Source: an uncultured Gammaproteobacteria bacterium (GTDB lineage: Bacteria; Patescibacteriota; Patescibacteriia; Veblenbacterales; UBA10138). Taken from it: a stretch of DNA of 64,000 nucleotides. A model generated the notes under the pieces. The model searched no databases, was not told the origin of the DNA, and saw nothing but the letters and a program-made list of their open reading frames with translations. Position 1 is the stretch's first letter, and every line of letters begins with the position of its first letter. Positions 9,533 to 57,421 of this stretch are shown here, piece by piece. Location: positions 16,945 through 80,944 of the forward strand of contig CAZMHN010000001.1 of NCBI GenBank assembly GCA_964566145.1. Reading direction: 5' to 3'. A program made the position numbers and the translations under genes.

Positions 9533-9646
9533 GACAAACCCTCCTATTAATTTGTATTCTTGGCGGAAACTTAAGGTCCATTTTTGTGCACTGAACCTAC
9601 CAACCCCTCATCGTTCTGTCAATGATTGCAGTATACTTATACCACC

Positions 9647-29033: not shown

Positions 29034-30386
29034 CTAGTGCCTCACCCAGTCCACAGCCTCGGCCACAGTACGGACCGCTACCACTTGCATGTCTTTGGGT
29101 GGATGGATGTCGCCGGGCAACGTCGGCACCAACGCCTGCTTGAAACCAAGCCGCCCTGCCTCCATGAGGCGCTTGCCCATGCCCGTAACCGGACGCACTT
29201 CGCCGCCCAAGCCAACCTCGCCGAACACCATGAGATCCTGAGGCAAGGTCTTCTTTAGGGCGGCCGAGGCCACGGCCGCGCACACGGCCAGATCCAAAGC
29301 CGGCTCGCGGCTACGAAAGCCTCCGGCCAGGTTTATGTATACGTCGCTGAAGTTGAGCCTGACGCCGGCCCGCTCCCCCAGGACCGCCAGCAGAACCTGC
29401 AGACGGTTCGCGTCGAACCCAGTGGTGGCGCGCGTCGGCCTGGACTGATGCGCCCTAGTGACCAGGGCCTGAAGCTCTATGGCCAGGCTCCGCGAACCTT
29501 CCAGCACGCAAGTCACGCACGAACCTGCGCCGTGATGGCGTTCGCGCAGGAACAGCTCAGACGGATTTGCCACCTCCGCAAGTCCCCTGTCATCAATCTT
29601 GAACACCCCCACCTCATCGGTCGATCCGAAACGGTTCTTGGAAGCGCGTAAAAATCTCAGAGATTGATGCGGGTCGCCGTCCAGGGCCAACACCACGTCC
29701 ACCAGATGCTCCACAGTCTTGGGGCCGGCGGCTATGCCTTCCTTGGTCACATGCCCGACAATGGCAACGGGAACTCCGGTAGCCTTGGCTGTCTGCGCCA
29801 GCTCAGCGGCCACGGCCCGCACCTGGTTGGGCGAGCCCAGCGAGCCGTCCGTGCCTGGGTGCTGAAAAGTCTGCAAGCTGTCCACCACGGTAAGCTGAGG
29901 CAGGCGCTGTCTTATGGACGCCGTAAGCGCTAACACGTCGGTACTGGAAACGAACGCCAAAGACTCCCCTTTCAAACCAAGCCTGTGAAAACGTCCGGCT
30001 ACCTGTTCGGCGGATTCCTCACCCGAGGCATAGAGCGCCGACGCGGCTCTTCCGGCTATAGCCAGAAACAAAGTGGACTTGCCTACGCCAGGTTCGCCGG
30101 ACACCAACAATACGCTCCCCTTGGCCAGGCCGCCGCCCAGCACGCGGTCGGCCTCGGCAAAACCGGTTGCCGTCTTAGGCGCCTGCACCGCTCCCGCTTG
30201 CGACAAAGACACGGCCTCGGCCGGAACGCTCGACGGACCGACGGGCTTCCTGGCCGCTTGAATCGCGGCGCCTTCAGTCCCTATGGTGCCGAACTTGCCG
30301 CATTGCGAACACCGGCCAGTCCACTTCGGATACTGGGCGTCACAGTTTGAGCACGCATACACAATGGATACCTTGGCCATAACCAC
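29034..30386 (-). CDS. radA: DNA repair protein RadA/Sms.
   Basis: 450 aa. N-terminal C4 zinc finger (CSNCDAQYPKWTGRCSQCGKFG). RecA-like ATPase Walker A (GEPGVGKST). KNRFG motif. Lon-like C-domain. Confidence 0.95.
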   Translation of the reverse strand: MVMAKVSIVYACSNCDAQYPKWTGRCSQCGKFGTIGTEGAAIQAARKPVGPSSVPAEAVSLSQAGAVQAPKTATGFAEADRVLGGGLAKGSVLLVSGEPGVGKSTLFLAIAGRAASALYASGEESAEQVAGRFHRLGLKGESLAFVSSTDVLALTASIRQRLPQLTVVDSLQTFQHPGTDGSLGSPNQVRAVAAELAQTAKATGVPVAIVGHVTKEGIAAGPKTVEHLVDVVLALDGDPHQSLRFLRASKNRFGSTDEVGVFKIDDRGLAEVANPSELFLRERHHGAGSCVTCVLEGSRSLAIELQALVTRAHQSRPTRATTGFDANRLQVLLAVLGERAGVRLNFSDVYINLAGGFRSREPALDLAVCAAVASAALKKTLPQDLMVFGEVGLGGEVRPVTGMGKRLMEAGRLGFKQALVPTLPGDIHPPKDMQVVAVRTVAEAVDWVRH

Positions 30387-30401: not shown

Positions 30402-31754
30402 TCAGTTACAGCATGAGGACATCTTCGGCTTCTCAAAATGCCAGGGCTCGGAACACAGCTTACAAAAACCCTGGTCACGCATAGCTTGGATGACAGCCGC
30501 CATGGCCGTATTCTGTTCGCACAACGTCTTGTTCTTAAGGCACTCCTTCTGGGTGATGGCCTGCACGCTACCCATAGATGGCCATACGTCCACCGCCCGA
30601 CCGGTGGTATGCGGACAACTTATCGGCCCGTTGTTCATCATGCACGTAGTGGGACGGCCAGGCTTTGGATTGCATGATATAGGCGGGTTGCACGGCGGAC
30701 TGGCACACGGGGTATTCTGACAGTTCAGGGCAATAAGCTCGCGTTGCTTGGCTTCACTGCGGAGGCCAGAAGCAATGACCAGGCTAATCCCTTTGTTCTT
30801 GAGCGCGCTCGCCGCCTTTTCCAAGTCAATCGCGATTGAATAATCCACCCGCTGGCCCGAGCTGTTTATGATATTGTCACCGGACACTGCCCATGCCGTT
30901 GGCGAACTTTGAGTGGAGACGTCCTCACTTGATTCCAGCGTATCAAGACTGAACTCTATGCGGTCTATTGGCGTAATTGCATCCAGAGACTGCAAATCAA
31001 CCAACGCCGGATTCACGAGCGAAAGCAGAGAATAGGAAATAAGCGCAATGACCAATCCGGACAATGCACTAAAAATTGTGTCGTTGGCATCAGTTATCTT
31101 GGTGGGACTGCCTGCGGCTATGATGCGCTTGAAGCCGCCCCACATCACCATGACCACGGCGACCACGGCCAGCATGGCCACAAAAAAGCGGTAGAAAAGG
31201 GCGAAATAATGCACTGCGGTCGAAGCGGTAATGACTATTCCCTCGCCTGCCCGGACGGTAAAGTTGGCTCCTCCAATAGTAATGCTACCCGGAATAGTAA
31301 CCTGTGGTATGAAAGTAACCGAGCTGGCTGGCGATGGAGTTTCAGAATCAAGATCAAGCGGCAAGGTTGACGCCACGGTCGATGATACAACAACTGCGTC
31401 ATCGATAACATCTTGCTCACCCCCAGGCGCCGCCAGCATCACTGTCTTGACACAGGCATACTCCGCCTGATTCGTACCGATGGGGCGATAACAGCACACG
31501 TACCTGGGAACGCCCGGCATGGAACTGCCTTCTAGGCCCGGACACATAACCTCATTTCCAGTTATACCGCAGGTATCATCGCTGGGGTCGCCTACGTTAT
31601 TGGTATTGTAGGCTGTGAATGCGGCCGGTAAATAGGCGCTGTCAGCGACCTTGCACGCTTCCGCCGCGTCCTGACCAGTCTGGGCCATAGCCAGCATAGG
31701 CACCACCAATGCCGTTACGCACCATATGCCGGATAAAATCCACAGCCTGCTCAT
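30402..31754 (-). CDS. Secreted Cys-rich protein with a VirB2/TrbC-like two-helix membrane hairpin and a C-terminal LAS-superfamily M15 (VanY-like) peptidase domain.
   Basis: Signal peptide. Hairpin FYRFFVAMLAVVAVVMVMWGGFKRII...ALSGLVIALISYSLLSLVNP. C-terminal motifs SGLRS...Q..L, H...GRAVDVW and EPWHFE. Confidence 0.6.
   Translation of the reverse strand: MSRLWILSGIWCVTALVVPMLAMAQTGQDAAEACKVADSAYLPAAFTAYNTNNVGDPSDDTCGITGNEVMCPGLEGSSMPGVPRYVCCYRPIGTNQAEYACVKTVMLAAPGGEQDVIDDAVVVSSTVASTLPLDLDSETPSPASSVTFIPQVTIPGSITIGGANFTVRAGEGIVITASTAVHYFALFYRFFVAMLAVVAVVMVMWGGFKRIIAAGSPTKITDANDTIFSALSGLVIALISYSLLSLVNPALVDLQSLDAITPIDRIEFSLDTLESSEDVSTQSSPTAWAVSGDNIINSSGQRVDYSIAIDLEKAASALKNKGISLVIASGLRSEAKQRELIALNCQNTPCASPPCNPPISCNPKPGRPTTCMMNNGPISCPHTTGRAVDVWPSMGSVQAITQKECLKNKTLCEQNTAMAAVIQAMRDQGFCKLCSEPWHFEKPKMSSCCN
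31078..31181. repeat. Direct repeat copy 1 (about 104 nt, roughly 95% identical to 34626-34729).
   Basis: By-eye alignment of the two TM-hairpin coding cores. Only about 6 mismatches. Confidence 0.8.
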
Positions 31755-31773: not shown

Positions 31774-32424
31774 TTAGAGTTGCTGTCGAATTATGGCTTC
31801 CAGATCGGAAGCGGTAAGCAGGCCGCTCCACGCCTGGCCGTTGATTACAAAGTAGGGCGTCCCGTCGATGCCTATGGCGTCCCCCTCCCGCCGATTGCGT
31901 TCTACTATCGCCTGCGTCTCTTTGCCGTCCAGACACCTTATGAACTGCGGCAGCCTTAAACCCACCTCTCCCGCCAGCTCAACATAGGCATCGTTGCCCA
32001 AGCGTGCCTGTTCACGGAACAGGACGTCGTGGTACTGCCAGAATTTGCCCTGCTGATGCGCACACTGCGCCGCTATAGCCGCAGGCAGTGCTTCGTCGTG
32101 TCCAGGCACCGGGTAATCCTTCCATACCAGCCTGGCCTTGCCGCCGGAACTCTCAACCGCCTGCCTTGCCGCCGGAGCGGACTGGGCGCAATAGGGGCAC
32201 TGGAAGTCGCTGAACTCGACTATGGTGACATTGGCGGTGCCAGACCCCAGGCTGGGATCAGCCGCGAACACCTGCACTTGCGCAGGCAACTTATAATCCA
32301 ACGGCTCCTCGAGCGGCACTGGACCGGAAGAGCCCTTGGGCCAAGCTTTCACTGCTGCCATTGCCAGCACTATGCAACTCACGCCTAGAAGCCAGAGCAA
32401 TGGCGAACGAATCCACGCCGGCAT
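31774..32424 (-). CDS. DsbA-like thiol:disulfide oxidoreductase (thioredoxin fold).
   Basis: N-terminal anchor. CPYC active site. TPYFVING cis-Pro loop region. Confidence 0.8.
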   Translation of the reverse strand: MPAWIRSPLLWLLGVSCIVLAMAAVKAWPKGSSGPVPLEEPLDYKLPAQVQVFAADPSLGSGTANVTIVEFSDFQCPYCAQSAPAARQAVESSGGKARLVWKDYPVPGHDEALPAAIAAQCAHQQGKFWQYHDVLFREQARLGNDAYVELAGEVGLRLPQFIRCLDGKETQAIVERNRREGDAIGIDGTPYFVINGQAWSGLLTASDLEAIIRQQL

Positions 32425-32433
32425 AGCGAGTCA

Positions 32434-33663
32434 CTACTCCGATAACTGCATACTTCGCAATATGCCCGTAGCGTCATCCGTAAAATACAGGAACCGTCCG
32501 TCCCCGGAAACAGTCAGATTCCCTGTCGTAACGCCTTCTCCCCGCTCGTTGACCGGCGAACCCACCACCGTGGTACTGCCGGTCGTATAGTCGATGCGCC
32601 AAACGGTGTCTGGCACGCCCTGCGCCATCTCGCGCGCAAACCCGGCGCCAGCTGGAAGCTCCTGAGGCACGGCGCAATAGGCCGCCGAACCCGCGAAAGT
32701 ACATTTATCGGCCCAAGTGGACAGATTCAAAGTCTGGTGGTTTGAGCCCACCCGGTCAACCGAACCGTCCACCAGGTAAAGCATGGGCTTGTAGTCGGTC
32801 TGATCGCTGTACGCCGAATACAATATGCGCTGTCCGTCCGGAGTCCACTTGGGAGTAAAGCCCCGGCCTTCCACGTTCAGGGCTCGGTAATTCTCATCGT
32901 TGAAGCCTATGAGAAGAACTTGCTGTTCGAACACGCCCTGCGCCTCGCCGGTACGAGACAGCGCTACCACCTGGTTGTTCGGCGCCCATTCTACATCCAC
33001 CTTGTCCGCGTTGTCGCCCATAGGCTCTATGCCCCTGAGATTCGAGCCGTCCGGATTCACGGCCACTATCCAATTGTCAGCCGTACGGTCGCTCAGGAAC
33101 TTGCCGGCCAGCTCGCTACTGTCGTATGAAAAGGAAAACTCAGCCATCTCCTGGGGGAGCGTGTACTGCTTCTGCGTACGGAAATCGTACACGATGTTGG
33201 CGCCATCCGGGAACTCAAGCACGGCCTTGTCCTTGGAACCGGCCCAGGTAATATCCTGCACGTTGCAATACGTGGCCTCGGCCAGGCGGCTACGGTTGCC
33301 GCTCGCGTCCACCTCGTAGAACTGACACGTAGCCGCGTCGTAGTACCGCACCGTCCCGCTTGAAGTCACCTCCGGATCCAAGGCCGCGCCGCTGGTAAGG
33401 GCCGGTGAAGCGGTAAGGCCTCCGTCAGCTACGAGCGAAGCTTCCGGGAACACAGGCACTCCGATACCCGGCTCGTTCGTGCCTGGCGCAGGTCCGCCTT
33501 CATTCACGGCCGGAAAGCCTCCTGGCGGAGTTACGTTCACGTTAGTAGGCGGCTCAACCGGCTCCGGACGCCACACCAGGTACATAAGCCAGGCCAGCAC
33601 TATGATGCCAACGGCGACCACCGCCATCAAAATAAGCTTCCGTCTGTCCAAATTCTCAAGCAT
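32434..33663 (-). CDS. Membrane-anchored TolB-like beta-propeller protein.
   Basis: N-terminal TM helix, Pro-rich linker, repeated WxPDG-type blades (VAVNPDGSN, PKWTPDGQRILYSA, SGDGRFLYF). Confidence 0.6.
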   Translation of the reverse strand: MLENLDRRKLILMAVVAVGIIVLAWLMYLVWRPEPVEPPTNVNVTPPGGFPAVNEGGPAPGTNEPGIGVPVFPEASLVADGGLTASPALTSGAALDPEVTSSGTVRYYDAATCQFYEVDASGNRSRLAEATYCNVQDITWAGSKDKAVLEFPDGANIVYDFRTQKQYTLPQEMAEFSFSYDSSELAGKFLSDRTADNWIVAVNPDGSNLRGIEPMGDNADKVDVEWAPNNQVVALSRTGEAQGVFEQQVLLIGFNDENYRALNVEGRGFTPKWTPDGQRILYSAYSDQTDYKPMLYLVDGSVDRVGSNHQTLNLSTWADKCTFAGSAAYCAVPQELPAGAGFAREMAQGVPDTVWRIDYTTGSTTVVGSPVNERGEGVTTGNLTVSGDGRFLYFTDDATGILRSMQLSE

Positions 33664-33667
33664 ATGC

Positions 33668-35098
33668 CTAGCGGTCAGGGAAATTGGCCCGTGTAATGTT
33701 TAGATCGCACACGAACGGAGTCCTAATACTTCCATCCTGATTCAGTATCGCACTTTCCGGTATCAAACTGGAAGCGGGCACGGCACCCCAATCCAATCTG
33801 TCAACCGCCGCGGCCTTGGGGTCACTGGCACTGGGCGACGAACCGGAAATGTGCTTTGTTTCGCCGGCTTGACAAGAAGAAGCATCCACAGCATACCAGT
33901 CATCTGACCCGGAGCTTTCAACTTCGACTAAAAGTGCATAGCCCTTGCCTCCTCCTGATGAGGAACATAAGGCCGACGGTCGTAACGGCATATAGGAACG
34001 TTCTCCGGTCATTCCACCGCCCTGGCCCCAACAATTAGAAACGGCATAGGCTGATTTGCCCTCGACGTCAATGGTGCTGACATTAGGTGCATTTGGTTCG
34101 CTTACGCTACAATCAAAACCTGAAGCAGGGTTAGTATTATTACATATTATCTGTAAATCAATGTAATTAGTCTCGATTCCAGTGAGCTTACCCTGTATCA
34201 GATAATTACTACACGCATATTTCGGACTGTCGCTATAAAGATTTTCAAAACATCCTTGTCCGCCATCGCATTCTATCCCGATACATTCATTTCCATTGAC
34301 TACAAGTGTCCTTCCGCATGTCACTAATGGCCGCTGCGTTATAAGTTCAGCGCTGGAACCACCACACTGTCCACCGCCCGGACAATCTGAGTTCTGATAA
34401 CAATCCATCCTGTTGCGGTCTCCGCCTACACATTTGCCGGTTTTGTCATAGTATCCCACGCTATACAGCCCCGGATTCTCGCTGTACTTAGGACAGAAAC
34501 CGAAAAAATCCGGCTTGACCATTTCTATGGGCGGCAGGGTGTTCAAGACCAGTCTTGGGTTCACCAATGAAAGCAAAGAGTAGGACAAGAGCGCTATCAC
34601 CAGGCCTGAAATCGCACTGACAATCGTGTCGTTGGCATCAGTTATCTTGGCGGGACTGCCCGCGGCCATAATACGCTTGAAGCCGCCCCACATCACCATG
34701 ACCACGGCCACCACAGCCAGCATGGCCACGAAGAACTTGTAGAACGCCGCCAGGTATTGCGGGAATCCGCCCGTGACCTTGCTTCCGAAGCCGGGAATGG
34801 GCACCTGGAGGTCTATGTTCGTACTGCCTACAAAACAGCGGGCTGTTTCCACGTCAGCCGTACCCCGGCAGTTCTCCACGCTCCATTGGTCATTCTCCCC
34901 ATTTCCATACACCGGATTTCCGCGAAATACGTTTCCCTTGCCCCATATGCCCTTGGCCCCTTCGCAATCAGCTTCCAGCCAGCAACGCTTCTGCAACGCC
35001 TCATCCAATCCCGAATCGGCGGCCAACGCCGGCAGGGCCACCCACGGCAACACCAGCACCGCCAATGATACGAGTAAAATGAAAAATCTCCTGTTCAT
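33668..35098 (-). CDS. Paralog of 30402-31754: secreted Cys-rich protein with the same VirB2/TrbC-like membrane hairpin and a large Cys-rich C-terminal domain.
   Basis: Signal peptide. Hairpin FYKFFVAMLAVVAVVMVMWGGFKRIMAAGSPAKITDANDTIVSAISGLVIALLSYSLLSLVNP. About 25 Cys downstream. Confidence 0.6.
   Translation of the reverse strand: MNRRFFILLVSLAVLVLPWVALPALAADSGLDEALQKRCWLEADCEGAKGIWGKGNVFRGNPVYGNGENDQWSVENCRGTADVETARCFVGSTNIDLQVPIPGFGSKVTGGFPQYLAAFYKFFVAMLAVVAVVMVMWGGFKRIMAAGSPAKITDANDTIVSAISGLVIALLSYSLLSLVNPRLVLNTLPPIEMVKPDFFGFCPKYSENPGLYSVGYYDKTGKCVGGDRNRMDCYQNSDCPGGGQCGGSSAELITQRPLVTCGRTLVVNGNECIGIECDGGQGCFENLYSDSPKYACSNYLIQGKLTGIETNYIDLQIICNNTNPASGFDCSVSEPNAPNVSTIDVEGKSAYAVSNCWGQGGGMTGERSYMPLRPSALCSSSGGGKGYALLVEVESSGSDDWYAVDASSCQAGETKHISGSSPSASDPKAAAVDRLDWGAVPASSLIPESAILNQDGSIRTPFVCDLNITRANFPDR
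34626..34729. repeat. Direct repeat copy 2 (pairs with 31078-31181).
   Basis: See copy 1. Confidence 0.8.
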
Positions 35099-35099
35099 A

Positions 35100-35630
35100 C
35101 TATTGTGCTACCCACTTATACACCGTGCCCGCAAGCTCGCATCCGCCCACCTTGCCGAACAGACCCAAAACTGGCGATACGGCCGGGCCTAGGTTTTCGC
35201 ATGCCATGGCCGGGTCACTAACCAACGCGTAAACCACGCCGAACACTATAATCAGAATTGTAAGCGCAAAAAGCATTAATCCGTAATTGACCGCCTTTTC
35301 CCAGCCAGACTGTTTCCACCATGGTATAACGATTGGAAAAATTATTGTCTCTATAAACGACCAGGATAACAAGGCCCAGATGGAAATAAACACGTCGCCC
35401 AAGGATGTGGTGCCGAACGTCACTCCTTTTATCAGCCAACCTATCCTCTTCAGCTGTTTCAGTTTCTTGGCTAGACGTTCGACTGACTCTGCCTTACCCT
35501 GCAGAGCCGATGCCGCGGCTTTCCCAGCTACCCGCTTTGCCAATTCGCGCTCGGCCACCAAGGCTACCTGCGTCTCGCGTGCAACGGCCGCGCCCCTAAC
35601 CACGGCAGCGGCAATGGCAGGTAAGGGCAT
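35100..35630 (-). CDS. Hypothetical membrane protein (3 TM helices) in the T4SS-like operon.
   Basis: 176 aa. Charged N-terminus followed by hydrophobic helices. Confidence 0.5.
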   Translation of the reverse strand: MPLPAIAAAVVRGAAVARETQVALVAERELAKRVAGKAAASALQGKAESVERLAKKLKQLKRIGWLIKGVTFGTTSLGDVFISIWALLSWSFIETIIFPIVIPWWKQSGWEKAVNYGLMLFALTILIIVFGVVYALVSDPAMACENLGPAVSPVLGLFGKVGGCELAGTVYKWVAQ

Positions 35631-36206: not shown

Positions 36207-38087
36207 CTACCCTATCTCCGGCTCCTGCAGGCTGGCCTCGAACTGTTTCTTGGCCTCTTCTATCTCCAGAAGCTGCCTGGGGTCGCTAGTTATGAGCTGA
36301 TCCTCGGTGTAGCTGGCCACCACCTTGATGGCGGCGTGCTTTGAGCCGGCGAAGAATATACCCTCGCCTACCCCGCACTCCAGCAATAAGTACTTCTCAC
36401 CCTCGGTCAGAAGGAAGGTCTTCACCACAATGTCGATGCCGGCTGACGACTGCTTCAACAGCAGTTGCAGGCTGGAATTCGTGACTATGGCCTGTCCGTA
36501 GGGGCTGGTCAGGAAATCGTTCACGTCTTGCGTAATTGTGGTAACGCCAAGGTAGTACTTGCGGCAACGTTTCACCAACGCGAAGATGAATTTGGCAGAG
36601 TCCTCGTGCTGCATCAGCCACCATGCCTCGTCGATGACCAAAATGCGTTTCTTCAATTGTGACCTGACCACGTTCCAGATGTAGTTCACGATGGTGTATA
36701 TGGCGATGGGCCTGAGCTCATCCTCCAAATCCCTGACCGAGAACACCACCAGCTGGTTCCGCACGTCAACGTTAGTGGGACTGTTGAACAATCCGGCAAA
36801 AGTACCCTCCGTATACTTTTTGAGCCGCAATACCAAATCCTCCCCGCCCTGCATGCCCGCCAGCACTTCTTCGAAATCCGCCATGACCGGCGACTCCGCC
36901 TTAGACAGGTCCGTAGTAGAGGTAATGTCCTTCTTGGCGTAGGTTTCAATGAGTGCGCGGTCGATGATGGAGTCCTCCTGATGTGTAAGGTTGCCCAGCA
37001 TCAGACGCATCAGGCCCTTCAGAGTGATGACGGCTGAACGTATAATGTCGCCGGTCTTCACGTCGCCTACCGGGCGCGGCAAATCAAACGGGTTTATCTT
37101 GGCGTCCGAATTCAGAGAAATATTCACGTAGGTCCCGCCCACGGCATCGCACAGGTGCTTGTACTCCATTTCCGGGTCAACAATGATGACGTCCGTACCC
37201 ATCATGAGCGAACGGAGCACCTCGAGCTTCACGGCGTAGCTCTTGCCAGCGCCCGATGTGGCGAACACCACCATATTGGCGTTCTGCAAGCTGAATCTGT
37301 CGAACAGAATGAGCGAATTATTGTGGCGGTTGATGCCGTACAGTATGCCGTTATCACTGGTCAGCTCGGCGGAGATGAAAGGGAAAGACGAGGCCACCGG
37401 CGACGTGTTCATGTTGAAGTAAATCTGCAGTTCGTCGTTGGCCAACGGCAAGGTGGAGTTGAATCCCTGTTCTCCCTGCCACAGCGCGCGTCGGGAGTAG
37501 ACCAGCTTGGAGCCGATGATGGATTCCACCTGTTCGGTAAGCTTGTCCAGCTCCTTTTTATCGTGGGAGTAAATGGTGGCATAAAGCGCGAACTGGAAGA
37601 AGCGCTCGATGCCTTGGGTCAGGTCGTCCCTAAGCTTCTCAATGTCCCTAAGGGCTGTTTCGCGTATGGGATCCCTGGGTGCGCCCTTGTCATGGTCAGC
37701 CACTATCTGCGCCTCCAGTGCGCCCACTTTGTTCCGGAGCTGCTTCAGGATGACTTCGGACGGCACCTGGTAGAAGAACATGCCCACGTCCAAGGTGGCG
37801 TTCAGGTTCACGATGGGGGCGAACCACCCCACGGATATGTACCTCGGGTACGACAGCACGAACAAGGTCCGGAGGTAGAGGTCGTTGAGCTCCACGTGAT
37901 CGGGCATGATGCGGAAACTGGCCGGCGCGATAAGGTCCCGTACGCGGACCGCCCCTTCCCGCAATATTCTTTCAGCCTCCAGTATCTCCTTTTGCGTGCC
38001 AGTCGGAATAACCTGCTCCGGGGGCGGAGCGGCCGTCTCCTTGAGCTGTTTCTGCACCTTGCTTTTCGTAAAAAGTCCCATAGTCAC
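36207..38087 (-). CDS. virB4: VirB4/TrbE/CagE-family type IV secretion ATPase, central and C-terminal ATPase portion.
   Basis: 626 aa. Walker A VVFATSGAGKSYAV. Walker B ILVIDEAWWLM. VirB4-type middle domain. Confidence 0.9.
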   Translation of the reverse strand: MTMGLFTKSKVQKQLKETAAPPPEQVIPTGTQKEILEAERILREGAVRVRDLIAPASFRIMPDHVELNDLYLRTLFVLSYPRYISVGWFAPIVNLNATLDVGMFFYQVPSEVILKQLRNKVGALEAQIVADHDKGAPRDPIRETALRDIEKLRDDLTQGIERFFQFALYATIYSHDKKELDKLTEQVESIIGSKLVYSRRALWQGEQGFNSTLPLANDELQIYFNMNTSPVASSFPFISAELTSDNGILYGINRHNNSLILFDRFSLQNANMVVFATSGAGKSYAVKLEVLRSLMMGTDVIIVDPEMEYKHLCDAVGGTYVNISLNSDAKINPFDLPRPVGDVKTGDIIRSAVITLKGLMRLMLGNLTHQEDSIIDRALIETYAKKDITSTTDLSKAESPVMADFEEVLAGMQGGEDLVLRLKKYTEGTFAGLFNSPTNVDVRNQLVVFSVRDLEDELRPIAIYTIVNYIWNVVRSQLKKRILVIDEAWWLMQHEDSAKFIFALVKRCRKYYLGVTTITQDVNDFLTSPYGQAIVTNSSLQLLLKQSSAGIDIVVKTFLLTEGEKYLLLECGVGEGIFFAGSKHAAIKVVASYTEDQLITSDPRQLLEIEEAKKQFEASLQEPEIG

Positions 38088-38818: not shown

Positions 38819-39271
38819 TCACTCCTTGCTCTTGGCTCCAAACTCGTCTTCCGGCTGATACGCTCCTCCGGTATCCACGACCAACGACAACTCCTGTAGC
38901 CGGGAAGACGGGACGTAAGGCTTGGTGCGGTGAGTTTCCGGAACGGCCGTGGTGGCGCGGCCGCGCGCCGGAGCCACATCGGTAAGTTCAGTCGGCTTCT
39001 GCCACACCCGCACCTTGGGCGTGAAGAACGTAGCGAAAAAGTTGGACAGGAAGAAATGGAACGGCATCCCGTTCACTTTCATGAAAGCGAACAGCGCCGT
39101 CAGGAACACGGTCACCAACGCTTCTAAAATGAACAAGCCGAAATCAGCGAACTTGAACTCCAAGAACAGGAGGAATCCGGCCACCAACATAACTATGAAC
39201 TGACGGACGGTTACGGGGCCGATTATCTTATCCTCTACATCTATGAACTGCGGGACGACGAACTGTTGCAT
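38819..39271 (-). CDS. PrgI-family protein (VirB3 analogue of Gram-positive-type T4SS).
   Basis: MQQFVVPQFIDVEDKIIGPVTVRQFIVMLVAGFLLF... two TM helices, then KVNGMPF...VRVWQK. Matches the PrgI family signature. Confidence 0.75.
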   Translation of the reverse strand: MQQFVVPQFIDVEDKIIGPVTVRQFIVMLVAGFLLFLEFKFADFGLFILEALVTVFLTALFAFMKVNGMPFHFFLSNFFATFFTPKVRVWQKPTELTDVAPARGRATTAVPETHRTKPYVPSSRLQELSLVVDTGGAYQPEDEFGAKSKE

Positions 39272-39298
39272 ATAAAGTAAGTGTACCACGCGCCCGGT

Positions 39299-41255: not shown

Positions 41256-44200
41256 CTAAACGGACCTACCTTTCATAATATTCTCAATGTTCGCAAACGC
41301 GCCTTCGCCTTCTCCAGTGCCTGCGAATTCCTTCAGCTCATCCAAAAATTCCCCGTATTCTTTCAACTTATCCGGACTCACAAAACCCTTCCGCGCAAGC
41401 TCCTCAAGCTGTTGCACGTTGTCGCCTGACGTCAGGTTGACCGCCAGGTTCACATTGAAGCGCTCTTTCTTCAATTGCTCCCGCATGCCCTCCCATTTCT
41501 CTACGAAATAGGCCTTGCCGAAATCATTTATCTGAAAGCCCCTCTGTCCGCTCACGGCGTACGCCTTGGCGCGCTCTTCGGCTGAGACATCAGGCGGCAG
41601 GTCAGGGGCCGGAGTTTCTGAACCCCAGGCCAGCCTGTTGGCTTCGCGCAAGAACCTTTCAAAGTCCACCTTGCGAACTTCGGCGAGGACCTCCTTCATC
41701 CTGTCGCCTTCATCCTGCCACTCCATTTTTCCGTTCTCTACTTTCACAGCCCTGGCGGCGCCCCAGTGCTTCACGCCCTCCGCTATATAGCTCGCGTCAC
41801 TGCCTATGGAAAGCGCCTGTTCTCGAGCCATGCCCAATTTCTTGATGAATATCTCCTCAATGAACTGGCGCATGCCGGTGGCGTCCGATTTGAAACCGAA
41901 TTCGTTCTGTATCTCATTCTCGTTCCCATACTTGGTGGCCTTCAGGTATGCGGCCGCGGCCCTGGTTGTATCGCCGACTTCAATCGCGTCTCTCATTATT
42001 TTATGGAGCTCCTGCCAGTTGTCAGTCTGCATCTCGCTCATCTCTTTGTTGATCTCAGTCCGCTGCTCACGGCGAATCTCATAATCGGTCGCCGGGGCGT
42101 ACTCGTTGGCTTGCCGCAATTCTTCCTGCATCTCTTCATTGAGTTTGGCGATGCGTCCGGCCGCAGCCGCCCTGTCCACCTCGCTCGTGTATGAACTTTT
42201 TGCATCCGCCTCGGCCTCGTCTGCCTCATGGCGCAGCTTCGTCACCCGCGCCGCCTTATCCGATTTTTCTTCGGCCGAAAGCCCAGGATGCTGAAGGCCT
42301 CCTATGAGCGCTTCCACTCGGCGTATCTCTTTGTCATCTCCTGCCAAAGCCTCTTGTTGTTGTTTAGGCAACAGCCCTTGAATCCTCAGCTGCCTCGCCT
42401 TAGCCTCGCGCGCCTGTTGCAGGCTAACGAGTTTCTGCGTGAGTTCCTCAAGCCGCTTGTTGCGGGTTTCCATTTGATCAGGCAACAAACCCTTATTATC
42501 GGAAATGGCTTTGGCCTGCTGGCGCTTGCTCATGGCCAGCCCCACCAAGCGCTCCCGCTCCATCCGCTCGACCTCTGCGGGACTCTTGCCCTCATACTGG
42601 CTGAAGCTCGCAGCGTACTGCTGTTTCTTCTTTTCGACTGCTTTCTGGATTTCATCTGCTTCTTTCATCAGCTTGGTCTTCGCTTTCGTATCATCCGTAG
42701 CCCCGGCCAACTCCACCTTTTTCCCGTACTCTTTTTCCAATCTAGCAATGTCTTTCTTCTCGCGTTCCATCTTCTGGAAAATCACATCAGACTTGTTCGG
42801 CTTTGCCTTGCCGGAAAGAGCCGCCATTTGCTGCCTTATCTCGTCGGCGCGTTGTTTGTGCCTGAGGTATGTCTTTCCGGTAATATCCCCTGCTCGGAAT
42901 GAGGCGACCTTGCCCAAATTCTTCAGATTCCACTGATGGGTAAACAGATGGGCGGGCGAGCCAAGCGCCTGCAGTACCCTGCCCTTCTCCACCCTGTCCA
43001 AATACACCGACTGCTGTCTGGTCACGCGGTCGGAGGCGCGCTTGGCCACGCCCTTTTGCCAGCCCTCCTTCCATTTCTTGAGCGATCCCTCAACACCCAA
43101 TCGCGATGTGGCCTCTTCCCACAAGAACTTGCCAGTACCCTTCGCCCCCTTGCCGGCCAACACGGCCGCCCCGCCAGCCAGTCTCAATGGCGCCTTGGCA
43201 ATTGAGGCTCCGGCGCCTTGAATCTTGGCCATGGCCTTGCCCGCCAGCTGACCGCCCATCACTCCCAACTGCTGGGTCATCCACAAGCCGCCCATCAGAA
43301 GGATTATGTTGACGATGAAAGACAGCAGCACTTCGGACTGTCCAATCTCAGTTATGGCCGCCGCGGGAATGCTAAGGTCATCCACTCCCGCGGCCTGATT
43401 GGCCGTGAAATCCCCGAGAGCATTAGTGCTGAACTGCATCACTGCCAAAGACAGCCACAGGAAGAATGCCAGAATCGGTCCGGTCGAAGCGTACCTGCCA
43501 AACTGATCCCACCACATTGATGAGTACTTCTTGGCGTCGCCCGGGAAAGCCGAGAGTACGTAAGCTATGGGTGAGACAATGACGAGGAACCACAGCGCCA
43601 CGATGCGGATTAGGAACACCATGAGATACACCGCCACCACAACAGTGGTGATGATTATGGTGATAAGCGCCAGCATGGCGGCAAACAAGAACGACTCGCC
43701 GCTCGCCTCGGACGTTCCCTGCTCCGCGAATTTGAATATCTCGGCCAAGTGGAACCCCTGTACAAAGTTGCCTGCGGCGGCCTCCTTGAACCCGTTCACG
43801 AAAGTGAGCATGACCACCTGGGCCACGTCGATGAAGAAACCCGTGATAGCCTTGGAGAAATTTACCAGCACGGCCATGATGAGGAGCTTGCCCAGGAGCT
43901 TCTTGTACTGGTACTCCTCGATGCGGAACACACTGCCAAAGGCGATAAGCAGCAGAATGACGACGAAGAACATGTTGGATATGTCCCTCACGATGACCCA
44001 TCCCTTCTTCACCGCCTCGGCGTTGATGAAATCGTTGTATTGCGCCACCTCTATGAGGAGCCCAATGAGCGTGAGGGTGAGCTTGCCCAAAAAGCTGGCA
44101 ATGGCCAAAATGATGCCTGCAAAAAATCCCGCCACCGCACTGGCGATTTGAGCATTGGCCGCCACGGGAACGAGCGCCGCCAGCACCGCAAGCACCGCCA

Positions 44201-44273
44201 TGGCGGTAAGCCAGGCGGGTCGGTGCGCTATGCGGCGAGCGTATGCTGCCAATCGGGCGAATGTACTGCCCAT
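41256..44273 (-). CDS. VirB6/TrbL-like polytopic membrane protein with a roughly 600-aa charged coiled-coil C-terminal extension.
   Basis: 1005 aa. Signal/TM, then about 8 TM helices in the first 400 aa. K/E/Q/R-rich heptad-like tail. Confidence 0.7.
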   Translation of the reverse strand: MGSTFARLAAYARRIAHRPAWLTAMAVLAVLAALVPVAANAQIASAVAGFFAGIILAIASFLGKLTLTLIGLLIEVAQYNDFINAEAVKKGWVIVRDISNMFFVVILLLIAFGSVFRIEEYQYKKLLGKLLIMAVLVNFSKAITGFFIDVAQVVMLTFVNGFKEAAAGNFVQGFHLAEIFKFAEQGTSEASGESFLFAAMLALITIIITTVVVAVYLMVFLIRIVALWFLVIVSPIAYVLSAFPGDAKKYSSMWWDQFGRYASTGPILAFFLWLSLAVMQFSTNALGDFTANQAAGVDDLSIPAAAITEIGQSEVLLSFIVNIILLMGGLWMTQQLGVMGGQLAGKAMAKIQGAGASIAKAPLRLAGGAAVLAGKGAKGTGKFLWEEATSRLGVEGSLKKWKEGWQKGVAKRASDRVTRQQSVYLDRVEKGRVLQALGSPAHLFTHQWNLKNLGKVASFRAGDITGKTYLRHKQRADEIRQQMAALSGKAKPNKSDVIFQKMEREKKDIARLEKEYGKKVELAGATDDTKAKTKLMKEADEIQKAVEKKKQQYAASFSQYEGKSPAEVERMERERLVGLAMSKRQQAKAISDNKGLLPDQMETRNKRLEELTQKLVSLQQAREAKARQLRIQGLLPKQQQEALAGDDKEIRRVEALIGGLQHPGLSAEEKSDKAARVTKLRHEADEAEADAKSSYTSEVDRAAAAGRIAKLNEEMQEELRQANEYAPATDYEIRREQRTEINKEMSEMQTDNWQELHKIMRDAIEVGDTTRAAAAYLKATKYGNENEIQNEFGFKSDATGMRQFIEEIFIKKLGMAREQALSIGSDASYIAEGVKHWGAARAVKVENGKMEWQDEGDRMKEVLAEVRKVDFERFLREANRLAWGSETPAPDLPPDVSAEERAKAYAVSGQRGFQINDFGKAYFVEKWEGMREQLKKERFNVNLAVNLTSGDNVQQLEELARKGFVSPDKLKEYGEFLDELKEFAGTGEGEGAFANIENIMKGRSV

Positions 44274-45260: not shown

Positions 45261-45300
45261 CCCCGTCCCATCGCACGCGATGGGACGGGGTATTTTATTT
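45261..45300 (+). terminator. Intrinsic terminator after the lipoprotein gene.
   Basis: ccccgtcccatcgc-ac-gcgatgggacgggg hairpin followed by tattttattt. Confidence 0.8.
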
Positions 45301-45310
45301 CTTAGACAAT

Positions 45311-48300
45311 CTACGAACCTGTGTTGTCTATGGTAATGGTTCCCCCGAATGGCAGCCAAGCGCCGATATTGCTCAGCTCACAGTCGTTCTTCCACATACC
45401 GCCCGCTCCCCCTCGGCACCACTCCCAGTTGTCCTGAACCAGCACCTTAGGCGCGAACGTGCACGTTTCGCCTGACGGGCAGACGTAAACCTTGGTGAAG
45501 TTGAAATAACCGGTAACCGCAGACGTATCCTCAATGCACGCGCGCGGATCATCGCCCCAGTTATAACCAGCTTCTTCCGGTTCTTTGCAGTCATGCTTCC
45601 TGTTCTTGAATTTGCCCTGCGAGCCGGACAAAGGCGAGCCGTCGTCCCAATCCACCAGCACTCTATTCAAAGGCATTTGTTCTCCGTTCGGATTGTAGGC
45701 GTAGAACGCCACCGACACGCCGTCGCCTGAGTCAATGGTCAAGTTACTGCCTGGCGCGTAAGCCCTGCCGCCGGAAACTATGGTGAACCCAGCCCCTCCT
45801 CCCTCGCCTGTGGGGCGGCCAAGATTATCGAACAATACCGGCTTTATCTCCGGGGCCGCCGGCACGCCAGGGGCCAAGGACCCCAGGGCACTGCCGCTGA
45901 CGTCGCTATCGGTCATGAGCCTGTCCCACCGGTTGTCCTGGTACCTGTACCTATTGAATTCCTTGGCAAAAATCTCGTTCAAACTCTCGCGCCCGGCCGT
46001 CCCGGTGTTGGAATTCATGCCGGTCAAATTCTCGCATGTCCCGCCTCCGGAACAGCTGGAATTATTGAGACAGCTCTCCCCGTCGCGCGCACCGCCGTTG
46101 CATATGCCGCTGAAGTAACCCATGCATATGCCGGAGTTATAAGTGTCGCTACAGTAAGATGAATTGTCGCAATTCTGGTACAGCCTGTCCGCTCGGCCGG
46201 CAATGCACATGCCGGCGTTACCCGTACCTGTCGGCGGCACGCACGTTCCGGTGGACGGAGGAGCTACGGTACAGCTGGTATAGGCAGGCGTGGCGCAGTC
46301 ACTGTTTATCTCGCAGGGTGCACCGCCGGCCGTACATTGGCCCCAGACGCCATTACCAGGGTCTTCGCCCTCGCATGTATTCGCCGGACAATCAGAATCA
46401 GCCTGACAGCTTGCCCCTCCCACATTGCATGAGCCACCCAACTGAATAGTACACTCCGCATCGTCAACACAAGACCTGCCTATGGAATTACTGCAGGTGC
46501 CGGCGTTGCTTGCCGCGACCGTACCGCAATTCCCAGAGCAAGAATACGGCGTGGAAATCTTCAGCACCTGCCTGCCTCCTATGGAAACCTGCTGATTGCT
46601 GTCTGTCACGTACATGAGCTGGCCGGTAGGCGTGCCGCTCAAAGGAAGCTTGCCGTAGAAAGCGTCCGGACGGTAGTTCCAGAAGTTCAATGTGCTGGGC
46701 GGCACGTTGTAATCCGTGCGCCTGAGCACTCTGTCGGTCCAGGCTTTGTCAGACACGTTGGTAGAGGTCTGAACTGTTTCAGTGCAGTACTCCCTTAGCC
46801 TAATACCTGTAGTCATCGTGGCGCCGCCTGAGTCACCCGAACCGTCACCCACCATGACGTTGTAGCCTAGGAAGGCCTTAGTAGCCGCATTGAAAACTGC
46901 TTTGATAACGGCATAGTCATCCGGACCGCCGATACAGCTACTAGGGCCTGCTGGAGCCTGCAAAGCATCACCGCTAAGGCTGTTGCAAGCCGCGGTCACT
47001 GACGGGGTTCCGCTGGAACCGCCGCCGCACCAGCTGCTATCCTCATCCAATTGGAAATTACCATTGATGTACTGCCCGCCGCCCAGGCCGCTACCGTAAT
47101 ATCCAACCATGTGCACGTCTATGCTTTCAACATCAGACAGAACTATGCCTTGCTCGCTGGTCTCTGCCGGCACATTGAACAACGCACAAGTGTTCACCGC
47201 GCCCGCAATTGTAAATCCTTCACCCGCGCAGTACCAGTTATCCCCGCCCACTACCCCCCATCGGCCTGACGGACATAGCTGGCCGTTATGTGCGCCCACG
47301 AGATAAGCTGATGTCCCTCCTTTCCGGTTGCCCTTGGCCTCACTGCAGTAGTAAGTACTGCCGCCCTGGTACCCGGCTTCGGGCGAGTAATCGTACACGG
47401 AGATCTCGCCCCCGACGGCGTCTGTCGGGTACCATGTCAAGCAGGCATAGTCCGTAGCGCTCCCGGCGTTGATGACGCGGGAAGTGTCTTTCTCGACGCA
47501 ATACCCGCTCTGGCCGTAGGCTATGTCACGCCGCTTTATTCTGCTCATGAGCGGGGCGCCGTCTATCCCTTCGTCCACCGCCACCATCTCGTCCACCTGG
47601 CTGGAACTTATGCTGTAGAACACCTGTTCTCCGCCTGAATAGGCCACACGCTGGTACGAACACTCGCACACCTCGCCAGGCTGGCACACGTTCGCCTGCG
47701 AGAACCCACTGGCCAGCCTCTCGGGCAACTCTATGTAATAATCGTCGCCTGGATTTGGACAGACGCCGCCCTGGCAAGGCGATTTCCATTCGCTGGCAAT
47801 GGCCGCGGGGAAAGGCGCGTCGGCCTGGGGATAAATACGGCACTGCCTGGGCGCCACATTATCCAGGAATTCACCCGGCCCTTCGCCGTTTATGCCCCTA
47901 TCGCGATACTCGCAGTAAGTGCCGTCGCTGCACCTGGACCCTAGCGTACTGCACTCCCGGCCAGCGACAGCCAAACCGTTGCAATACAGCCCGCCTGTCC
48001 TGTCCTGATAGGTCACCTTGTAATCCGGTCCCTGCTGGTCAGTGGAATAGTTCTTCTGCGTCAAGGCATCCAACGGGTACACGTTAGCCATTGAGTAGCC
48101 CGAATACTCTGGGTCGTCCCAGTTCCTGGGTTGGCGCTGATACCAAGCCAAACTATGGACCTGCGGGGTGGAATCATTCGGCTGCCAGCTTCCGCTGAGC
48201 CAGTTGCCGCACCGCGCAGATGATCCGGTGCCGGTGCCTGCCAGGCTGTTGCAGGCGCCCAGGCTGTAGCAAATGCTGTCGAAAGTGTTGGATTGCGGGT

Positions 48301-51300
48301 TCAGACGGGCCTGCTCGCTTTGGCAGGAAAGCCACTCGCCGCAAGTGCGGTCGCGGCGCACCTTGAGAACCACGTTGGAATCCGCATCGCCCGAGGCCTG
48401 CCCTACGCAAGTATCGACGCAGTCGGCATTGCCGGTGCAGGTCTGTCCCGGGATGTTACTGCAGGCCCTGCCTGTGGTAACCACCTGGTTGCAAGTGGGA
48501 GCCGAAGGCACGCACTCCAAAGACTGAGCCGAAGGCGTAGTGCAGGTCTGCAGCGGGTTATTGGAACAGCGGTTCACGTTGGTGTCCTCACACACAGGCT
48601 GGGGGGCCGTCCCGGAGTAGCAAATGTAAGGCACTGTTCCGCCGCACCGCGCCGTGTCTATTTGACAAGAGCACTGCGGGTACCTCCTGCAGTCAGCCTC
48701 GGTCGCAAAACACTGCGGTATGGACATTTGGAACGTGGGCAGGGACGACTTCGCCAGCGTATTGCAATCGCTGTTCGTTGTGCACATCTGCGTCGCGTCG
48801 TTGCTGCATACTCCGCGGTTAGCCAGGCACGACGGAGCGTTATTAACGCAGTCTATGGCAGTAGCGCACGTCCTGGCCCTGTCGTTGGAACAATAACCCT
48901 GAGTGGCGCTTCCCGTACTCTGGCATATGCCGCCGCAGTCAGCGTCGGCCTGACAGCTGGTCGCCGTGTTCCGACTGCATGTCCCTAAGGTGCCGGAGCC
49001 GGACGATACCGGGCTTACCAGCTGGTTGTTTTGATTGCGGCTGGCCGTGTAGGTCAAGCCGCTGCTCCAAATTGGGGCGGAACTCTTGGACAGATCATTA
49101 AACAGCACGCAACCTTCTTTCTCGCTCACCCTGCCGCTGCACGTGGTGGCGTCTATCCGTTCGTCATTCAGATAGTAATAGGTCTTCTTGGTCAGCCCGC
49201 CGTCGTAGAACGCAGTGCAACCGGCCTGGTCCGAAGGGCAAAGGTAGGCGTAGTCAATTGTTGACTGTTGCAGCGCCTCGTAATCGGTAAGCGTGCCCGG
49301 CAACTCCAGAATGCGCACGTCGTCCATGAGTATCTCCTGATTGGCCACGCAGGGTACGGCGGTACAACTTGGACGGTTATTGGTGACTAGCCCGACAGAC
49401 AATGAATCCACCCCCGGCTCGTCAACGCGTATGACGTAGCTCAGCGTTACCCATTGATCGCGCAAGGGATTGCGGGTCAGGGCCTTCACGCCCCCCACGA
49501 ACGTGTAGTGGTGACACGTACCGCCGGAACACGCACCGTTGACATACGCATGGTTCTCCACTGACCAAGGGTCTTCGGCTTCCGCATCAGCAGGCACCCA
49601 GACGCGCGCCGATATGGCGAAGAATCTGCGGCTATTCTCGCTCGAAGGCAAGGGTATATTGCTGGACCAGATACCCGAGTACTGCACATCCGCACTGCGG
49701 ACGCGCACTACAGTGCCTCCCCAATACCGGCCGTTCAACGAGTGCTCTGCGAACAGCTCCCCCACGTTGCTGTTTCTGGACCAGCTCGCGAATGAGTCGG
49801 GTTCACCGTCGCTCAGGCCCCCATCGTAGTTCTCGAAACTCGGGTTAGCCACCAAATTGCACGGCACGTCCGTGCCCTTCTTATACCAATCGTACCCGCG
49901 CTGTGTGTCGACTATCTTATATTCGCACAAGCGCTCCTTTGGGTCCTTGAAGTAATGGCTGGCTCCGGATGTGTCAGTGTACTCTTCGCACCCGTCCTGG
50001 CTCACGTCGCACAGCGGGCTTACTGGATTTGCAGCGTCGAACGTGTCGGGGTCAAGACGCATGAACACGTCGCTCCACTGAGTTATGTCGCCGCTTGCGT
50101 CCATGGTCGGATCGCCCACGCGGCGGCACCCGGCGTAACCCGCACTGCATATTTTTTTGCTGTCATACACGCGGTAAGCCACTTGGTCGGCCGGTACGCT
50201 CACGGATTGCCCTCCCACAGTGAATGTTTGTTCGCGCGGCGAGGAAGAATTCTGGGTGTTCACCAGCGCCTCACAGCCCGCGACTTCGTTGCGGCATATG
50301 CGCGAGAACCCCGTAAGCGCGACTTGCTGATTGCTCCTGGTACGGTAAGCACTGCACCGCAGGTGCAGGTTGGCATCGCAAGCCGACGGCATGTTCCATG
50401 AATTCTTACGCACGAAGAAGCTGTCCTGCACTTCGCGGAATTGTATGTTATCTATGTAGAACGGATCACCGTCGGAAGACCTGATCTCGAGCACCGCGTT
50501 CCCGGCGCTGGCCGAAACCTCGATTGGCCCAAGCGAGAAGAGCTGCCACTCGGTATAGTCCACCGGCACCTGAGCAAAGGCCCCTACTATGTTACCGTTG
50601 GAGGTTTGGAGCTCGGCGCCGACGTAGCCCGGCCCTGAATTGCGCCGTATCCAGAAAGTCAGCGTGTACTGCCTGCCCTGCTCCACCAGGCTTACGGGAT
50701 GGGTCATGGTGCCGTTGTAAGCGTCGTATGAGTGCCCGAACGCCGTGGTTGATTCGTTGGAGTTGGATCCCCCGGTCCATCCGGATGTCGGGCTGGAATC
50801 AGCGTTCACTCCCGCCTCCCTGTCGCCGAATGTTGACACCGGGAACACAAACCGCACATTGGAAGCGGTAGGACCCCTGAATTCGCGGCAACCTACAAAT
50901 TGCGCCGCGCACACCTTGCCTTGGGAAGGGATGGCGCGGTAGAAACAGAAATTGCCTTCCACGCTGCCGCCTGACGACGTACAGTCATTGGCCTCGAAGT
51001 TAACGCCTACCGTACCGGTACGGCGGTAACGGTTGCACTGCTCGGAGGCTGAGCGTGTTTTGGTGAAGAACCGGTAATGAGGATTCCCGTTCTGATCGTA
51101 GAACTCCTTGCAGTCCGGGTCCGAGGTCGGGTACGCTCCGCCCACTCGGCAGTCGCCGGAACCGTCCGTAGTGACCGGAGGCTGGCTCGCCCCTCCCTCG
51201 AGCTGCCAGGTTTTTAGCTGATACCCGGTAAGGTCGCTTCCCACCCAGGTATAGTAAGTGGCATCGCTCTCGCCGGGGCGTACGCACTGCCGGAGCTCTG

Positions 51301-56788: not shown

Positions 56789-57421
56789 CTAGGAGCGTAG
56801 CATGCGCTCCAGCTTCCGGCGAGGAATCGCTCCGTCGCGCAACACCGTGAGCCGGGCGCGCTCCACCTTCACGACTGTGGATGTCGGCCGCCGCCTGAGC
56901 TTGCCGCCGTCCACCATGTAACTCAAGCCGCGCCGGACCAATGCCCGCGTGACTTGCGCCGCGGAATACGGCGTAGATTTCCCGGTGACGTTCGCGGACG
57001 TAGCTACGAGCGGCCCGCCGGCCCCCCGTGCCAATTTACGAAGCCAGACACTGCCAGGAATGCGGATGCCCACTGTGCCGTCAGCGGCGCGCACTGCCTT
57101 GAGCAGTTTGCCATTGGCTGTAAGTACGAGCGTTAACGGACCAGGCCAGAACCTCCTGGCCAGTCCGGCTTCGACCGTATTCATACGGCAGTATTTGCGC
57201 ACCATGTTCATGTCCGAAGCCACCAAAGGCATGGCTTTGGGGTCGCGCCGACCCTTTAGCCGCGCCACAGCCCGCACTGCGCTTGCATTCGCGGCATCGG
57301 CAAACAGGCCGTACGCCGTTTCGGACGGCCCTGCCACCACCTTGCCTGCTTTCAGCACGGCAACCACTGCGGCCAGGCTCCGATTCGTACGGGGATATAC
57401 GGTTATGGTACGGTTGCTCAC
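56789..57421 (-). CDS. tsaC: L-threonylcarbamoyladenylate synthase (YrdC/Sua5 domain).
   Basis: 210 aa. YrdC fold motifs (PSETAYGL, PGPLTLVL). Overlaps the leuS stop by 4 nt. Confidence 0.85.
   Translation of the reverse strand: MSNRTITVYPRTNRSLAAVVAVLKAGKVVAGPSETAYGLFADAANASAVRAVARLKGRRDPKAMPLVASDMNMVRKYCRMNTVEAGLARRFWPGPLTLVLTANGKLLKAVRAADGTVGIRIPGSVWLRKLARGAGGPLVATSANVTGKSTPYSAAQVTRALVRRGLSYMVDGGKLRRRPTSTVVKVERARLTVLRDGAIPRRKLERMLRS

Follow-up and report, generated by a model that had tools for sequence, protein, structure and literature searches.

Relation to described systems

Classical type IV secretion systems (T4SS) make use of lytic transglycosylases of the VirB1 type, to which CHAP domains are added in monoderm systems. 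The hydrolases of this class (VirB1, PrgK, TraG of pIP501, TcpG) act as lytic transglycosylases or as muramidases, some of them carrying a CHAP amidase/endopeptidase domain in addition, and in monoderms they are often membrane-anchored. Here, a gene is described that likewise lies in a T4SS gene cluster and likewise encodes a predicted peptidoglycan-active enzyme, but this enzyme is a zinc peptidase and its anchor is a membrane hairpin of the type found in T4SS pilins. The gene is located in a stretch of 64,000 nucleotides, hereafter the window (GenBank assembly GCA_964566145.1, contig CAZMHN010000001.1, positions 16,945 to 80,944; all coordinates below are those of the window), which GTDB places in the Patescibacteriota. 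The pilin-peptidase fusion is a conserved family and no one-off, and in the window its hairpin closely matches that of a neighbouring pilin-like protein. Both the family and this matching of hairpins within a genome appear to be undescribed: neither was found in the literature searched, PMC12102498 and PMC10633639 make no mention of a VanY or carboxypeptidase domain fused to a pilin, and the matching appears to be a new observation.

Most Patescibacteria with VirB2-like pilins lack VirB1, according to a survey of 3,035 genomes of this phylum, and the survey suggests that other enzymes may take its place, citing the essential 'peptidase and lysozyme homologues' beside virB4 of Southlakia (PMC12102498). 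The peptidase among these is the product of SEML1_0007 of Southlakia epibionticum ML1, an essential gene that adjoins the VirB4-like SEML1_0008; its C-terminal domain is classed as 'Hedgehog/DD-peptidase' and is best matched in structure by a 'Peptidase M15B domain-containing protein' (PMC10633639, Table S2 of Wang et al. 2023). Like the fusion, it is a T4SS-cluster protein with a C-terminal LAS-type peptidase domain; it differs in the size of its gene, 3342 bp (~1113 aa), and in having no pilin hairpin annotated. With this domain and structural match, SEML1_0007 is a precedent for M15-type peptidases in T4SS clusters of Patescibacteria, and it shows that LAS-type peptidases accompany T4SS in this phylum. 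The initial annotation of the gene had presented a VanY-type peptidase fused to a pilin-like module as an unusual solution for opening the cell wall. The fusion to a pilin module is indeed unusual, whereas M15-type domains in T4SS clusters are not without precedent in this phylum, given SEML1_0007, and the fusion is no singular event. The observation itself is confirmed, and its interpretation is supported in part, namely for the peptidase, the pilin hairpin and the T4SS context.

The fusion also has to be compared with the VirB2-like pilins described in Patescibacteria (PF18895, or TrbC, PF04956; PMC12102498, PMC10633639). It resembles them in its signal peptide and homologous two-helix hairpin, and in its position beside genes for VirB4, PrgI and a VirB6-like protein, with more than one paralogue per locus. 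The described pilins are, however, ~90-150 aa long, as against 450 and 476 aa for the two hairpin proteins here, both of which carry large ectodomains at both ends.

Architecture and conservation of the fusion

The gene and the parts of its product are as follows.

30402..31754, minus strand: whole fusion gene, 450 aa plus stop codon (open reading frame list, Pfam VanY and T4SS_pilin matches, AlphaFold model)
31683..31754, minus strand: predicted signal peptide, aa 1-24, ending …VVPMLAMA and followed by QTG (reading of the sequence; hydrophobic from aa 6; helix 4-24 in the model)
31227..31682, minus strand: variable N-terminal ectodomain, aa 25-176, 6 Cys
31014..31226, minus strand: T4SS_pilin/VirB2-type two-helix membrane hairpin, aa 177-247
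30870..31013, minus strand: acidic Ser/Thr-rich linker, aa 248-295 (low model confidence at about aa 260-280)
30405..30869, minus strand: M15 (VanX/VanY-type, LAS) zinc peptidase domain, aa 296-450, 12 Cys

When a profile of the C-terminal domain was run exhaustively with HMMER against 1.84 billion cluster representatives, 239 proteins were obtained at E<=1e-3, 111 of them at E<=1e-10, and 124 of the 239 were used for the family alignment and the architecture counts given below. A word-index search had found two relatives for the peptidase domain and none for the window hairpin. Since there are 239 cluster representatives and the hairpin is present in 110 of the 124 aligned members, the fusion constitutes a family. 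When ten of the clusters were looked up in a public collection, nine were unnamed and one was called 'D-alanyl-D-alanine dipeptidase'.

The AlphaFold2 model, built on the 124-sequence alignment, reaches a predicted local distance difference test (pLDDT) score above 90 over aa 290-450 and over the hairpin. The hairpin consists of two long helices (aa 177-212 and 217-247) joined by the short loop KRIIAAGSPTK. Most of the N-terminal ectodomain is poorly modelled (low confidence, aa 23-137); beta strands at aa 146-175 precede the hairpin, and P155 is 80% conserved across the family. To judge from the sequence, the signal peptide is probably cleaved after AMA. As a cleaved signal peptide would be followed by two transmembrane helices, the ectodomains on the N-terminal side (~150 aa) and on the C-terminal side (~200 aa) are both predicted to lie outside the membrane. 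The number of Cys residues in the C-terminal domain is even in 110 of the 124 members; these even counts and an adjacent DsbA-like gene fit an oxidised, extracytoplasmic enzyme.

The peptidase domain

Three motifs had been pointed out in the initial annotation, and all of them are present in the open reading frame.

30729-30770, minus strand: motif 1, SGLRSEAKQRELIA, aa 329-342; R332 aligns with VanX R71, and Q337 is invariant in the family
30582-30611, minus strand: motif 2, HTTGRAVDVW, aa 382-391; zinc ligands H382 and D389 align with VanX H116 and D123
30432-30449, minus strand: motif 3, EPWHFE, aa 436-441; catalytic base E436 and third zinc ligand H439 correspond to VanX E181 and H184

The spacing first given for the second motif, H-x3-G, has to be corrected: the true arrangement is H-x2-GRAVD, the classical H-x6-D.

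The assignment to the M15/VanY type is upheld by several lines of evidence. PF02557 (VanY) matches aa 303-440 of the fusion with E 3.9e-06 and 27.1 bits, where the gathering score is 25, and among the 124 homologues VanY is matched by 87 and Peptidase_M15 by 60. With the single sequence, a PDB search gave nothing significant (VanY at E 0.9-1.3) and an NCBIfam scan matched no peptidase family; significance in the PDB comes through the family profile only, which retrieves VanX (E 2.3e-08), the endolysins Ply500 (3.2e-08) and LysB4 (6.8e-08), LdcB/YodJ (3.8e-07) and VanYB (1.6e-06). Weak endolysin matches (E ~1e-3) were found in PHROGs; like the NCBIfam result, they say nothing about specificity. 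The profile alignment pairs R71, H116, D123, E181 and H184 of VanX with R332, H382, D389, E436 and H439; in VanX, R71 is the transition-state Arg, H116, D123 and H184 are the zinc ligands and E181 is the catalytic Glu. In the model, the domain has the LAS (Hedgehog/DD-peptidase) fold, with a Foldseek match probability of 1.00.

Across the alignment, R332, Q337, H382 and D389 are invariant, and E436, W438 and H439 are conserved at 98-99% (E436 at 98%, H439 at 99%). The His/Asp/His triad, the loss of which would have pointed to an inactive or unrelated domain, is therefore intact in the fusion and kept at 99-100% family-wide. Since all catalytic residues are conserved in this way, a fortuitous match of motifs and a pseudo-enzyme without activity were both rejected. 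In every feature examined (model match, zinc ligands, catalytic Glu of E-x-x-H, Arg of S-x-x-R, fold) the predicted domain fits the M15 family, and it is apparently an active peptidase.

What sets the family apart from VanX, VanXY, VanY and LdcB, and from the solved M15 enzymes in general, is a Cys/Pro-rich insert of ~40 residues between motifs 1 and 2, together with six near-invariant Cys residues (C345, C361, C371, C380, C431 and C449, 96-99%). Furthermore, the domain is here C-terminal to a pilin hairpin and lies outside any van-operon context. Because VanX, VanY and LdcB are as distant as Ply500 and LysB4, the specificity cannot be read from the relatives: by its sequence the domain stands at the same distance from dipeptidases, from carboxypeptidases of the DD and LD types and from L-Ala-D-Glu endolysins, so that no particular cleaved bond is indicated.

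Automated resistance surveys of genomes of the Candidate Phyla Radiation (CPR) would label a gene of this kind as a VanY-type glycopeptide-resistance determinant. Such a label could draw on the Pfam VanY match and on the 'D-alanyl-D-alanine dipeptidase' name of the one family member, and a preprint (10.1101/2021.07.02.450847) lists van-type genes for CPR genomes. It is nevertheless highly improbable that the fusion confers resistance. No vanH/vanA/vanX or vanR/vanS-like genes are present among the 16 neighbouring genes scanned, and on this gene context the vancomycin-resistance assignment was rejected. The hairpin, the Cys-rich insert and the T4SS surroundings are unlike van operons, and the family is no closer to VanX or VanY than to LdcB or the endolysins. 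Genes of this family thus run the risk of being mislabelled as vanY or vanX in resistance-gene surveys.

A pilin-type hairpin, matched within the genome

The fusion shows the layout of a pilin, with a signal peptide followed by two hydrophobic helices and a short loop, and it is the hairpin that links it to T4SS pilins. T4SS_pilin (PF18895) is matched by 110 of the 124 family members, and five match TrbC as well. A profile made from 23 hairpins retrieves 506 proteins with E values down to 3e-22; the best 120 of these are 88-128 aa long, PF18895 is annotated in nearly all of them and PF04956 in many, and the name 'pilin [Patescibacteria group bacterium]' occurs among them. The proposed fusion of the peptidase to a T4SS pilin-like hairpin is thereby substantiated. 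With 450 aa, the protein exceeds the size of small pilins (under ~130 aa when mature); it is pilin-like in its hairpin only.

A second hairpin protein is encoded a short distance upstream.

33668..35098, minus strand: second pilin-hairpin protein, 476 aa (Pfam T4SS_pilin, 28.8 bits)

In the window, the two proteins share 74% identity over 86 aa (86% over the hairpin core) and are otherwise unrelated. This is unlike the divergent paralogues of Patescibacteria pilin arrays, for which identity is 25% on average and 54% at most (PMC12102498). A scan of one genome per species, with a three-sequence alignment as query, gave 23 related loci; they sample only relatives with EPWHFEK or PKMSS[TC]CN and are no census. 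Most are titled Uhrbacteria, Moranbacteria, Magasanikbacteria, Parcubacteria or Saccharibacteria, and they are designated here by L numbers. The hairpin of the fusion is 84-86% identical to that of the other pilin paralogue in L003, 93% in L013, 83% in L019 and 57-61% in L004 and L005, down to ~30% in the Saccharibacteria loci. Between genomes, the hairpins of orthologous fusions are identical at a median of 37% and a maximum of 72%.

At the DNA level, the two hairpins of the window are 81% identical and use different codons at 21 of 57 conserved residues; the match is therefore kept at the protein level and is more than a very recent copy. Recent duplication alone is an unlikely cause, given the DNA identity, the differing codons and the unrelated flanking domains. 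The matching suggests that the fusion and the neighbouring pilin-like paralogue are handled by the same machine, and it argues against an arbitrary anchor. The simplest reading is that the two hairpin proteins have to fit a common partner, be it the T4SS machine or, for each of them, the other protein.

Some minor observations concern the hairpins. The C-terminal ectodomain of the 476-aa protein (290 aa, 16 Cys) matched nothing in Pfam, NCBIfam or PHROGs. A 176-aa protein (35100-35630, minus strand), on the downstream side of the VirB4 region, contains two hydrophobic segments 39 residues apart, which is the spacing of the pilin hairpin; the hairpin hidden Markov model did not match it. In L024, two open reading frames (7432-8358 and 9536-10189) share identical hairpin sequences and the peptidase match covers the last 53 residues only (10269-10427), which suggests that this copy is frameshifted or recently duplicated.

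The gene run and its conservation

The fusion is part of a run in which all genes from 44273 to 29034 are on the minus strand, with gaps of 1-19 bp downstream of the VirB4 gene. The order is VirB6-like, a 651-aa protein, PrgI/VirB3, a 240-aa protein, VirB4-like, two small membrane proteins, the second pilin-hairpin protein, PD40, DsbA, fusion and radA; recG is located opposite the run. Besides the two hairpin proteins, the assigned members are the following.

41256..44273, minus strand: VirB6-like candidate, first of the run, 1005 aa, 7 predicted transmembrane segments (hydropathy)
38819..39289, minus strand: PrgI/VirB3-like protein (Pfam PrgI, 31.3 bits)
36207..38087, minus strand: VirB4-like T4SS ATPase (Pfam TraG P-loop, 1.3e-30, and AAA_10)
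32434..33663, minus strand: membrane-anchored PD40 (TolB-like beta-propeller) protein (Pfam PD40; synteny)
31774..32424, minus strand: DsbA-like thiol-disulfide oxidoreductase with N-terminal anchor, adjoining the fusion upstream (Pfam Thioredoxin_4 and DSBA)
29034..30386, minus strand: radA, 15 bp downstream of the fusion (Pfam; conserved neighbour)

The 1005-aa protein has no Pfam match, and its VirB6-like label follows from position and topology. Scans for promoters and terminators yielded no more than was obtained with shuffled sequence, so the probable operon boundaries are drawn from spacing and strand only. T4SS loci of ABY1-class Patescibacteria commonly include recG and radA (PMC12102498), and the arrangement in the window is the one reported for that class. 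The T4SS setting claimed for the gene is thus well founded, with a VirB4-like ATPase, PrgI/VirB3 and a 7-transmembrane VirB6-like protein in the same run. Among the 16 genes scanned around the fusion, neither a lytic-transglycosylase nor a CHAP domain was found; Pfam (E<=0.1) and NCBIfam gave no SLT, lysozyme or CHAP match.

In the closest related locus, L003, VirB4 is 84% identical and the fusion 50% identical to those of the window; over the related loci, VirB4 orthologues are 68-84% identical. The order PD40-DsbA-fusion-radA(-recG) is kept in at least 14 loci, and VirB4 lies within 10 kb of the fusion in L003, L004, L008, L010, L019 and L021, and probably in L013. The Saccharibacteria loci are organised in another way, with small pilin genes of 100-147 aa after the fusion, three in L022 and two in L023.

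From the same neighbourhoods, it could be argued that the protein is a housekeeping carboxypeptidase or dipeptidase that trims or recycles stem peptides as the cell grows and divides, that the hairpin is a recruited anchor, and that proximity to T4SS genes merely reflects gene order in the lineage. Its closest solved relatives are VanX, VanXY, VanY and LdcB; PD40, DsbA, radA and recG are its most conserved neighbours, ahead of virB4; and the synteny is kept with no virB4 within 10 kb in L005, L006 and L009. In the Moranbacteria-like loci, a PD40-like gene precedes the fusion, the surroundings include dnaA, yidC, Wzy and glycosyltransferase genes, and virB4 is not close by. A plain anchor, however, needs no match of 83-93% to a paralogue while orthologues drift to ~37%. 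Moreover, 110 of the 124 members, from different classes of the phylum, have kept the pilin hairpin, and the Saccharibacteria fusion heads an array of small pilins. A housekeeping role is the less likely reading.

With regard to the neighbours, a PD40 gene precedes the fusion both in the ABY1-like loci and in the Moranbacteria-like L017 (8117-9244), and the PD40 protein may be a conserved partner of the fusion. As to the sources, L003, L008, L015, L017 and L021 are third-party annotation (TPA) metagenome-assembled genomes titled 'uncultured Gammaproteobacteria' or 'Bdellovibrionales'. L003, L008 and L021 have the Patescibacteria-type order PD40-DsbA-fusion-radA-recG with virB4 within 10 kb, and L015 and L017 have the pilin-peptidase fusion only; the titles of these TPA records are probably wrong.

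Proposed mode of action

We favour, with a probability of roughly 0.6, a surface-exposed, DsbA-oxidised M15 zinc peptidase that acts on murein stem peptides, is tethered by its pilin hairpin and works locally at the T4SS. The signal peptide would direct export of the fusion; the two hairpin helices would then enter the membrane in such a way that the short basic loop lies on the cytoplasmic side and the N-terminal ectodomain and the C-terminal peptidase remain outside. The VirB2/T4SS_pilin-type hairpin would hold the peptidase on the outer face of the cytoplasmic membrane, where the adjacent DsbA could oxidise the 12 Cys residues of the peptidase domain. Given the near match between this hairpin and the one of the other pilin-like protein in the operon, it is proposed that both enter one pilin pool and are served by the same VirB4/VirB3/VirB6-like machine. 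The peptidase might thus be positioned at the T4SS site, or on a fibre or surface array built by the machine, and would hydrolyse D-Ala- or D-Glu-containing murein peptide bonds locally. The target could be the cell's own wall, in a VirB1-like role, or that of a host bacterium. It is plausible, as a proposal, that the enzyme opens the wall for the T4SS; the essential SEML1_0007 of Southlakia is a precedent.

Several points weigh against this proposal. The T4SS_pilin match of the fusion itself (PF18895, aa 190-241) scores 20.3 bits, under the cut-off of 26.6, and to our knowledge 450 aa is far above the size of any pilin that polymerises. No small pilin gene (~100-130 aa) is present in the window between 28000 and 45000. 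Of the Moranbacteria-like and Saccharibacteria loci, those whose flanks are long enough (L007, L017, L023 and L024) have no VirB4 within 10 kb either, and in several loci the neighbours of the fusion are housekeeping genes such as radA, recG, dnaA and glycosyltransferases. Synteny kept within one lineage amounts to few independent observations. The nearest characterised enzymes, VanX, VanXY, VanY and LdcB, trim stem peptides and do not cut cross-links or open the sacculus. As regards the pilus, all hairpin proteins of the ABY1-like loci (L003-L006, L008-L010, L012-L014, L018, L019 and L021) are 280-560 aa long and none is a small pilin; since the window has no small pilin either, this lineage probably does not build a classical thin pilus.

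The choice of target leads to a special case of the favoured mechanism, in which the peptidase is a host-directed lytic effector: the T4SS would assemble or expose the hairpin subunits, and the peptidase would breach or remodel the host wall during epibiotic attachment. In Southlakia, the one system tested, the T4SS is essential for epibiotic growth, as is the pilin array, and no recognisable coupling protein or relaxase is present (PMC10633639, PMC12857230). The fusion is as close to the endolysins Ply500 and LysB4 as to VanY and has weak PHROG endolysin matches, and its paralogues combine one hairpin with different ectodomains. When peptides are attached to the C-terminal end of F-pilin, the pilus presents them on its surface. 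Polymerisation of such large subunits is, however, without support, no immunity gene was identified, and the cell's own wall is an equally possible target, so that an effector of this kind must be considered quite unlikely.

It could also be imagined that in Patescibacteria the VirB2-type hairpin is a modular carrier, and that the T4SS extracts subunits with differing ectodomains from the membrane and assembles or exposes them, one of which would be a peptidase displayed on a pilus or fibre and cutting the host wall. The hairpins may then be kept matched in each genome for co-assembly. This extension is unlikely as it stands. If the carrier or host-wall version were true, it would provide a concrete molecular activity for a T4SS that is essential to epibiotic growth. 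With its apparently active peptidase and its matched hairpins, the family is a candidate for the enzyme that deals with the wall where VirB1 is lacking, and it suggests that Patescibacteria 'pilins' can be carriers of surface enzymes.

Other features of the window

A LysM-Peptidase_M23 protein is encoded at 60425-61762 on the plus strand (E 6.5e-36), ~30 kb from the fusion. This conventional cell-wall endopeptidase could serve the T4SS too; M23 and LysM domains have been seen among the VirB1-like hits of the Patescibacteria T4SS survey (PMC12102498). Just upstream of the T4SS run lies a giant open reading frame (45311-53791, minus strand) of 2826 aa with 131 Cys, one N-terminal transmembrane segment and only a weak CBM_4_9 match, which may be a surface adhesin. 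Between it and the run there are a small open reading frame on the opposite strand and a strong DNA hairpin with a 13-bp stem (45261-45290). The leucyl-tRNA synthetase gene (57418-60282, minus strand) carries a NUDIX insert past the editing domain (PF00293, aa 409-511, E 9e-13), which is an unusual architecture for this enzyme.

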